Shown here: positions 20,023-22,708 of the stretch, piece after piece
Layout of the letters: each line of letters begins with the position of its first letter
Position numbering within the stretch: the stretch's first letter is position 1
Source: Escherichia coli
Lineage (GTDB): Bacteria; Pseudomonadota; Gammaproteobacteria; Enterobacterales; Enterobacteriaceae
Length of the DNA stretch: 64,000 nt
Assembly (NCBI RefSeq): GCF_013122565.1
Contig: NZ_CP053258.1
Strand: one strand, 5' to 3'
Position numbers and translations under genes: made by a program
The notes under the pieces: model-generated
Seen by the model: the letters and a program-made list of their open reading frames with translations, nothing else
What the model was told of the DNA's origin: nothing
Databases searched by the model: none

Positions 20023-21141
20023 ATGAAATACGATCTCATCATTATTGGCAGCGGTTCCGTAGGCGCTGCCGCCGGGTATTATGCAACCCGCGCCGGTTTA
20101 AACGTGCTTATGACCGACGCCCATATGCCACCACATCAACACGGCAGCCACCACGGCGATACGCGATTAATTCGCCATGCTTATGGTGAAGGCGAAAAGT
20201 ATGTCCCGCTGGTCCTCCGCGCGCAAACGCTGTGGGATGAGCTCTCCCGCCACAACGAAGATGATCCCATTTTTGTACGCTCTGGTGTCATTAACCTCGG
20301 TCCGGCTGACTCCGCATTTCTCGCCAACGTCGCCCACAGCGCCGAACAGTGGCAACTCAACGTTGAAAAGCTCGATGCGCAAGGGATTATGGCCCGCTGG
20401 CCAGAAATACGCGTCCCGGACAACTACATCGGCTTATTTGAGACTGATTCCGGCTTTTTACGCAGCGAACTGGCGATTAAAACCTGGATCCAACTGGCGA
20501 AGGAAGCGGGCTGTGCGCAGCTGTTCAACTGCCCGGTCACCGCAATTCGTCATGACGATGATGGCGTAACTATTGAAACGGCTGATGGTGAGTATCAGGC
20601 GAAAAAAGCGATTGTCTGCGCGGGAACATGGGTAAAAGACCTACTCCCGGAGTTGCCTGTCCAGCCCGTTCGCAAAGTATTTGCCTGGTATCAGGCCGAT
20701 GGGCGCTATAGCGTGAAGAATAAGTTCCCGGCGTTTACCGGTGAACTGCCCAATGGCGATCAATATTATGGTTTTCCGGCAGAAAACGACGCGTTGAAGA
20801 TTGGCAAACATAACGGAGGCCAGATTATCCATTCAGCGGATGAACGTGTTCCGTTTGCGGAAGTGGACAGCGATGGTTCGGAAGCCTTCCCGTTCTTGCG
20901 CAATGTATTGCCGGGCATCGGTTGCTGCCTGTACGGAGCTGCCTGCACCTATGATAATTCGCCTGACGAAGATTTTATTATCGATACCCTACCCGGCCAC
21001 GATAATACACTGCTCATTACCGGCCTGAGTGGGCACGGTTTTAAATTTGCGTCAGTTTTAGGGGAAATAGCTGCCGATTTTGCGCAAGACAAAAAAAGCG
21101 ATTTTGATTTGACGCCATTCAGGCTTTCCCGCTTCCAATAA
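20023..21141 (+). CDS. solA: N-methyl-L-tryptophan oxidase SolA (372 aa)
   Basis: Translation [57 protein letters not shown]... (FAD-binding GSGSVG). Confidence 0.95.
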
Positions 21142-21150
21142 TCATCATTA

Positions 21151-21175
21151 CGGCCTCCAGAATGAGGCCGTTTTT
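21151..21175 (+). terminator. Rho-independent terminator after solA
   Basis: CGGCCTC-CAGAAT-GAGGCCG hairpin followed by TTTTT. Confidence 0.8.
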
Positions 21176-21188
21176 ACAGGAGTATTTA

Positions 21189-21302
21189 ATGCGTCGGCTG
21201 TTGCACTATCTCATCAATAATATTCGCGAGCATCTGATGCTTTATCTTTTTCTCTGGGGATTGTTGGCAATTATGGATCTGATCTATGTGTTTTATTTTT
21301 AG
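21189..21302 (+). CDS. yceO: Small hydrophobic protein YceO (37 aa as read here)
   Basis: ATG at 21189 gives [37 protein letters not shown]; position between solA and yceJ matches K-12 yceO; too short for the ORF track. Confidence 0.6.
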
Positions 21303-21562
21303 TTTTCCGCACTGACATAAACTGACAAATATTTAATCTCCCTTTCATTTAGCGTGAAAAATTGAATGAGATTATTCCTGCTTCTACAGCACTCACCAGA
21401 CATCTCTGATGCTGAACCCACTAAACTTATGAAGATTATTTCATTATTAATTCAAAATTATTGAAATAAAAATAAATATCATTCAATTTGTTATTTTTGT
21501 GTTGCATTTCATTTTCCGACACGCCATTTTCTTTCTCTCGCAAATTCGTTTTGGATGCACTT

Positions 21563-22129
21563 ATGTCATTCACAAATACCCCTGAACGCTATGGTGTTAT
21601 ATCTGCGGCCTTCCATTGGCTAAGCGCAATTATTGTCTACGGCATGTTTGCTTTAGGTCTGTGGATGGTCACACTCAGTTATTACGATGGCTGGTATCAC
21701 AAAGCACCCGAACTGCATAAAAGCATCGGTATTTTGTTAATGATGGGGCTGGTTATTCGCGTTCTGTGGCGCGTCATATCTCCACCGCCGGTTCCGCTGC
21801 CGAGTTATTCGCCCATGACTCGTCTTGCCGCAAAAGCTGGACATCTCACATTGTACCTATTGCTGTTCGCCATCGGCATCAGCGGTTATCTCATATCAAC
21901 TGCCGATGGTAAACCGACCAGCGTTTTTGGCTGGTTTGACGTGCCCGCGACCCTTGCCGACGCTGGCGCACAGGCAGACTTTGCCGGTGCCCTGCATTTT
22001 TGGCTCGCGTGGAGCGTCGTAGTACTGTCCGTTATGCACGGATTTATGGCCCTGAAGCATCATTTCATCGATAAAGACGACACTCTGAAGCGCATGCTGG
22101 GAAAGTCGTCATCTGACTATGGAGTATAA
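21563..22129 (+). CDS. yceJ: Cytochrome b561-family protein YceJ (188 aa)
   Basis: Translation MSFTNTPERYGVISAAFHWLSAIIVYGMFALGLWMVTLSYYDGWYHKAPELHKSIGILLM...; internal start within longer track ORF. Confidence 0.88.
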   Translation: MSFTNTPERYGVISAAFHWLSAIIVYGMFALGLWMVTLSYYDGWYHKAPELHKSIGILLMMGLVIRVLWRVISPPPVPLPSYSPMTRLAAKAGHLTLYLLLFAIGISGYLISTADGKPTSVFGWFDVPATLADAGAQADFAGALHFWLAWSVVVLSVMHGFMALKHHFIDKDDTLKRMLGKSSSDYGV

Positions 22130-22132
22130 AAA

Positions 22133-22708
22133 ATGAAAAAAAGCCTGCTTGGTTTAACCTTCGCGTCCCTGATGTTCTCTGCCGGTTCAGCGGTTGCCGC
22201 CGATTACAAAATTGACAAAGAAGGTCAGCACGCCTTTGTTAATTTCCGCATCCAGCACCTTGGCTATAGCTGGTTATACGGCACCTTTAAAGATTTCGAC
22301 GGTACTTTTACCTTTGATGAAAAAAATCCAGCTGCCGATAAAGTGAATGTGACAATTAACACCACCAGCGTCGATACTAATCACGCCGAACGCGATAAAC
22401 ATCTTCGCAGTGCAGATTTCCTCAATACCGCAAAATATCCACAGGCAACATTCACCTCCACCAGCGTGAAGAAAGACGGTGACGAACTGGATATTACCGG
22501 CGATCTGACGCTGAATGGCGTAACCAAACCCGTCACGCTGGAAGCGAAATTAACTGGTCAGGGCGACGACCCGTGGGGTGGTAAACGTGCTGGCTTCGAG
22601 GCCGAAGGCAAAATTAAGCTCAAGGATTTCGATATCAAGACAGATTTAGGTCCAGCTTCTCAGGAAGTGGATCTGATTATTTCAGTGGAAGGCGTACAGC
22701 AGAAGTAA
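22133..22708 (+). CDS. yceI: Periplasmic polyisoprenoid-binding protein YceI (191 aa)
   Basis: Translation [66 protein letters not shown]...; 3 nt after yceJ stop. Confidence 0.93.

Follow-up and report, generated by a model that had tools for sequence, protein, structure and literature searches.

A short hydrophobic reading frame between solA and yceJ in Escherichia coli is yceO, a conserved DUF2770 small-protein gene

The 37-codon reading frame at positions 21189-21302 (+ strand) of the window, the 64,000-nucleotide stretch of Escherichia coli DNA analysed here, is the already-catalogued E. coli gene yceO (b1058), whose product belongs to the DUF2770 family. The original prediction, that a small-protein gene sits here at the K-12 yceO position, is thus correct but ordinary. 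Taking all of the evidence together, we consider it likely that yceO is a core gene encoding a single-helix membrane protein, that its translation starts at the ATG at 21189 and that it is expressed by read-through from solA. The conservation data disfavour each of the rival explanations weighed below: a 46-residue product, a regulatory leader reading frame, a type I toxin and a chance open reading frame.

Read directly from the window sequence, the frame runs from ATG to TAG over 37 codons plus the stop. Upstream lies solA (20023-21141, + strand), encoding N-methyl-L-tryptophan oxidase, with 47 nt between its stop codon and the yceO ATG; downstream are yceJ (21563-22129, + strand) and yceI (22133-22708, + strand). 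With a hairpin stem and loop at 21150-21171, just past the solA stop, the placement of a short frame between the solA terminator and yceJ is confirmed. A mechanical list of open reading frames gives a longer version at 21162-21302 (46 aa), because there is an in-frame ATG 27 nt upstream of 21189. The length cut-off of the reading-frame track hides a real, conserved small-protein gene, which the earlier reader of the sequence recovered correctly.

Comparison with K-12 was exact. The K-12 yceO coding sequence (NC_000913.3, 1119307..1119447, minus strand) has 0 mismatches over 141 nt to window positions 21162-21302, and the MG1655 record describes yceO (b1058), between solA and yceJ, as ‘DUF2770 domain-containing protein YceO’. 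Gene order across pyrC-dinI-bssS-solA-yceO-yceJ-yceI-trhO is the same as in K-12, and of the 2,686 positions from solA to yceI (window 20023-22708) 49 differ from MG1655, none of them within yceO. The predicted equivalence to K-12 yceO therefore holds both for the sequence (141/141 nt identical) and for the matching order of its neighbours. The protein scored 79.9 bits against Pfam PF10968 (DUF2770; cut-off 25, E = 1.3e-22), above the gathering threshold and over the full model, with profile positions 1-36 (of 36) aligned to residues 1-36 of the 37-residue form; no NCBIfam model matched either the 37- or the 46-residue form. All of the DUF2770 signature residues (N10, N11, R13, E14, H15, W23 and D30) and the length of about 37 residues are present. 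Set against K-12 YceO, PF10968 and the PGAP ‘YceO family protein’, the window gene is no different in sequence, shares its neighbours and matches the Pfam model over its full length; the sole discrepancy concerns the annotated start, which gives 46 residues in the curated K-12 record and 37 according to PGAP, Pfam and our alignment.

Within the species, the 501 nt at window positions 21100-21600 were present in 5,414 of 5,426 complete E. coli genomes; in 3,498 of these the identity was at least 99%. Together with the differences from MG1655, top matches of 99.4% place the source of the window in an E. coli lineage other than K-12. Five of the 5,431 matching places were on plasmid-labelled records, and a few genomes had two such places.

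Length alone says little about a frame of this size: there are 300 ATG-initiated open reading frames of at least 37 codons in the six frames of the window, and the length of yceO is therefore not above chance. What distinguishes it from a chance frame is the combination of conservation, the Pfam match and published detection of the protein. For the conservation, one genome per species was scanned with the family alignment A1 and the best 80 of 102 matches were kept. The peptide pattern [YFL][LVF][IVM]NN[IV]REH served to pick out the loci, so the sample covers species that have kept yceO, and invariance of residues 7-15 among these loci is partly by construction. These best 80 of 102 matches span about 25 genera of Enterobacteriaceae; yceO was on the solA strand, 7-133 nt past the solA stop, in 80/80, and its frame was intact in 78.

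Substitution within the family was of the coding type. Pairwise diversity at codon positions 1, 2 and 3 was 0.31, 0.11 and 0.54, with a median dN/dS of 0.17; leaving out codons 7-15, which were used in locus retrieval, gave position diversities of 0.37, 0.13 and 0.56 and a dN/dS of 0.24. The remaining five frames contained stops in 57-77 of the 77 unique sequences. The outcome by which the original prediction would have fallen, a frame not conserved in other Enterobacteriaceae, was thus not what we found: all 80 loci have the reading frame, 78 of them intact, and they vary as coding sequence does. We conclude that yceO is a real gene, inherited vertically as part of the Enterobacteriaceae core genome and under purifying selection. 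That the frame is instead a chance one in the solA 3′ UTR, conserved as RNA or DNA, would accord with the 300 frames of such size in the window, but it is effectively refuted by the third-position-biased variation (dN/dS of about 0.2), by a frame that is open in 78/80 species while the others are closed, and by detection of the tagged protein.

The exceptions were few. In the type strain of Salmonella enterica subsp. arizonae, codon 23 of yceO has changed from Trp to a stop (locus L060, 3001-3069), and the gene is frameshifted in one soil metagenome-assembled genome (L075, 3001-3150). A Salmonella enterica cluster (P0104/P0125) carries a 48-residue form in which the C-terminus is altered and extended.

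The family is small. Searched exhaustively with HMMER, 1.84 billion cluster representatives yielded only 38 clusters, with source names from Escherichia, Salmonella, Klebsiella, Citrobacter, Cedecea and Enterobacter. A 241-residue repeat protein in the same search (P0107) was set aside as an apparent chance match of low complexity.

The 37-codon start at 21189 is better supported than the 46-codon one and is the most likely start, strongly supported if not proven. An AGGAG Shine-Dalgarno sequence lies at 21178-21182 (+ strand), 6 nt upstream of this ATG, and the duplex with the 3′ tail of 16S rRNA is worth -6.9 kcal/mol before the ATG at 21189 against -1.7 kcal/mol before the ATG at 21162. The latter codon (21162-21164, + strand), which is the curated K-12 start and probably not the native one, has no Shine-Dalgarno sequence and lies within the loop and 3′ arm of the solA 3′ hairpin (21150-21175, + strand). 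This hairpin consists of an 8-bp GC-rich stem (21150-21157 paired with 21164-21171), a loop at 21158-21163 and a T-run of five T at 21171-21175, and its fold is worth about -14 kcal/mol.

Comparison across species pointed the same way. Among the best 80 of 102 matches, the position of 21189 is occupied by ATG in most loci and by GTG in five; in three loci the aligned codon is not a start, but there is an ATG one codon upstream. By contrast, across the 80 loci the codon 27 nt upstream is ATG only in E. coli, Escherichia albertii and Escherichia sp. MOD1. Three further Escherichia loci have TTG in its place, and none of the loci outside Escherichia, again among the best 80 of 102, has a start codon at exactly this position. 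Position 1 of PF10968 falls on the Met encoded at 21189 and not on the upstream Met, and PGAP annotates in other E. coli a coding sequence exactly equivalent to 21189-21302 (114 nt, 37 aa).

The native product could conceivably be the 46-residue protein beginning at 21162, as K-12 annotates it, although we regard this as improbable. The ATG at 21162 does exist in the window, in E. coli at large, in E. albertii and in MOD1, the K-12 curated record in RefSeq and EcoCyc style (ATG 21162, 141 nt, 46 aa) adopts it, and the Storz-laboratory mass spectrometry study works with this 46-residue form of YceO (PMC12529367). Expression of the 46-residue reading frame from pBAD in that study yielded an 11-residue N-terminal peptide, but from a plasmid ribosome-binding site; because it comes from a plasmid construct of the longer frame, this peptide is uninformative about the native start. 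The TRAINSPOTTER supplements do not mention yceO. Against the longer product stand the weak ribosome pairing of a codon inside a strong hairpin, the TTG in other Escherichia and lack of a start beyond that genus, and the Pfam and PGAP starts at the Met of 21189; moreover, the nine extra residues merely translate the 3′ arm and T-run of the terminator. The 37-residue form is accordingly favoured over the 46-residue one in the K-12 reference and in the design of mass spectrometry standards.

The hairpin between solA and yceO is itself a constant of the locus. A GC-rich hairpin was present there in 80 of 81 sequences, the 80 hairpins representing 74 distinct sequences, and had a ΔG of -10 kcal/mol or lower in 79 of them. 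From the hairpin to the yceO start codon the median distance is 21 nt (17 nt in the window), and the T-tail varies from none to 7 of 8 and is often weak. A strict consensus terminator scan did not call the solA hairpin, owing to its strict T-run rule, and a consensus promoter scan found promoter-like sites to be no more numerous than in shuffled sequences. The sole operon-style juxtaposition was in Buttiauxella sp. A111 (L076, 2986-3003), where just 7 nt, and no hairpin, lie between the stop codon of solA and the start of yceO. Sequestration of the Shine-Dalgarno sequence by pairing of AGGAG with the body of the reading frame was considered and rejected: the fold was no better than shuffles (z-score of -0.99), and the pairing was absent from the centroid structure.

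We suggest that the solA hairpin is terminator-like and probably leaky. Since no promoter fits into the 17 nt between the hairpin and the start codon, transcription of yceO must start before the hairpin, and adjacent solA is the presumed source. The yceO mRNA would then result from transcription that continues from solA past a weak terminator, and its translation would initiate at the ATG at 21189 behind the AGGAG at 21178-21182. This arrangement suggests expression by solA read-through; the hairpin could instead terminate efficiently in vivo. The position of yceO behind the solA hairpin in nearly all sequences (80/81) makes co-expression with solA the first concrete functional lead for this gene.

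Read-through of a weak solA terminator would explain the very low level of YceO protein. Chromosomally encoded YceO-SPA was visible by immunoblot at a very low level, by estimate lower than that of a pBAD construct by a factor of 10,000 or more, and YceO was among the small proteins detected by top-down mass spectrometry (PMC12529367). Elsewhere in the literature, yceO is labelled ‘acid stress response’, with 1.95-fold regulation, in a 2′,3′-cNMP transcriptome, is a Tn-seq-type entry for gallium tolerance, acquired a mutation in a motility evolution experiment, was down-regulated in intracellular uropathogenic E. coli and responded oddly to induction of poly(A) polymerase. Other mentions of yceO in the literature are table entries without a mechanism, and a text search for b1058 and DUF2770 gave no relevant match.

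The description of the peptide as ‘mostly hydrophobic’ is a fair one, with an overall GRAVY of 0.96, but the two parts of the protein differ sharply. Codons 1-15 (21189-21233, + strand) encode the N-terminal portion of the helix, which is polar and basic (GRAVY -0.63) and includes R2, R3, R13, E14, H15 and the NN[IV]REH motif. Codons 16-37 (21234-21299, + strand) encode a hydrophobic, putative transmembrane segment (GRAVY +2.05) that includes W23 and D30. AlphaFold2, run with the family alignment, modelled a single helix over residues 2-36 at a mean pLDDT of 96, and by this prediction the hydrophobic helix is long enough to span a membrane. A profile search of the PDB with the family alignment matched no solved structure.

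Residues 16-37 would span the inner membrane, their C-terminal end facing outward, with Trp23 lying within the bilayer and Asp30 near the periplasmic end. By the positive-inside rule, the N-terminus of YceO would be cytoplasmic and the C-terminus periplasmic, with D30 close to the outer leaflet. In alignment A1, N10, N11, R13, H15, W23 and D30 are invariant and E14, Y19, L22 and Y33 nearly so; the seven signature residues are likewise constant or almost so across the 77 unique sequences, with D30 in all 77 and W23 in 70. Two clusters from the unbiased search, P0116 with NNIRTH and P0122 with NNVREN, differ at E14 and at H15, respectively, so that either residue can vary. N10, N11, R13 and D30 are retained even in these two clusters, and N10, N11 and R13 were found in every homologue examined.

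The genes downstream bear on a further possibility, that yceO is a cis-acting leader or upstream reading frame that regulates yceJ-yceI and whose peptide is itself unimportant. Such a role would fit a frame that precedes these genes on their own strand and has no obvious terminator past its stop. The peptide is, however, under purifying selection and has invariant residues, and a gap of 260 nt with conserved promoter-like blocks of its own precedes yceJ. Nor is the linkage obligate: yceO is retained beside solA in 14 species that have no yceJ-yceI (loci L005, L032, L050, L063, L066-L070, L073, L076, L078, L080 and L082), where trhO follows convergently, directly after yceO. Retention where yceJ-yceI is missing argues against an obligate tie to these genes and against a leader-peptide role, which we judge very unlikely. 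Species without yceJ-yceI include E. albertii, Klebsiella, Raoultella, Pluralibacter, Kosakonia arachidis and Buttiauxella; in Klebsiella spallanzanii the trhO reading frame overlaps the end of yceO.

The yceO-yceJ spacer (21303-21562) has a GC content of 31% and is 258-263 nt long in about 40 of the 65 loci that keep yceJ. An alignment across 11 genera contained invariant blocks in this spacer. Just past the yceO stop, at about 21311-21327, is a tandem TGAC(A) repeat with a 10-nt period, CTGACATAAACTGACAA. A further block comprises a palindrome-like sequence, TTCAAAATTATTGAA, followed by an AT-rich stretch that resembles a Fur box in Huaxiibacter and Lelliottia. Shortly before yceJ, GTTGCA is followed after 17-18 nt by CCATTTT, which is probably the yceJ promoter or an operator. 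In E. coli strain 23555 an IS5 element lies between yceO and yceJ (L084, 1374-2354), and yceO is intact and still with solA.

A small hydrophobic peptide kept almost silent could also act as a type I toxin. YceO would suit this role in its size, in having a single hydrophobic helix and in its extremely low native abundance. In these respects, as a small hydrophobic helical peptide of tightly limited expression, it is like Ibs, Ldr, TisB and Hok. It differs from them in being a single-copy core gene of fixed, deep synteny across about 25 genera and in having no detected antisense RNA: an Rfam scan of 20900-21700, which covers described antisense and sRNA families, gave at E ≤ 1 one chance lncRNA fragment only. 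The PADLOC defence models did not match YceO, and no toxicity was reported for the cells that were cultured with pBAD-driven YceO and collected for mass spectrometry (PMC12529367). We regard a toxin as highly improbable.

The preferred reading is that of a small membrane protein expressed by solA read-through, and within it lies a narrower proposal, that YceO is a dedicated partner of SolA rather than a free-standing small protein. We hold this to be unlikely; in its favour, the order solA-hairpin-Shine-Dalgarno-yceO is fixed (80/80 species) and survives the loss of yceJ-yceI. SolA, the fixed neighbour of yceO, is a flavoenzyme that we take to be soluble. Were the proposal true, all YceO would come from solA transcripts that escape a leaky terminator, giving a low, fixed ratio of YceO to SolA; at the membrane it might then anchor N-methyltryptophan oxidase or a transporter associated with it, or modulate either of them, and the yceO start in the K-12 reference would be nine codons too long.

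In E. coli, the single-helix inner-membrane proteins AcrZ, MgtS, MgrB, CydX and KdpF modulate larger partners in the membrane. By analogy with them, modulation of a larger inner-membrane protein is the most likely mode of action for YceO: its helix would bind and modulate such a protein, and the NNxREH face may give the specificity. YceO has no sequence similarity to these five proteins and is not encoded beside an obvious membrane-complex operon, but it resembles them in having fewer than 50 residues, one predicted transmembrane helix and low abundance; it was found by the same tagging approach and is listed alongside MgtS, CydX and MgrB (PMC12529367).
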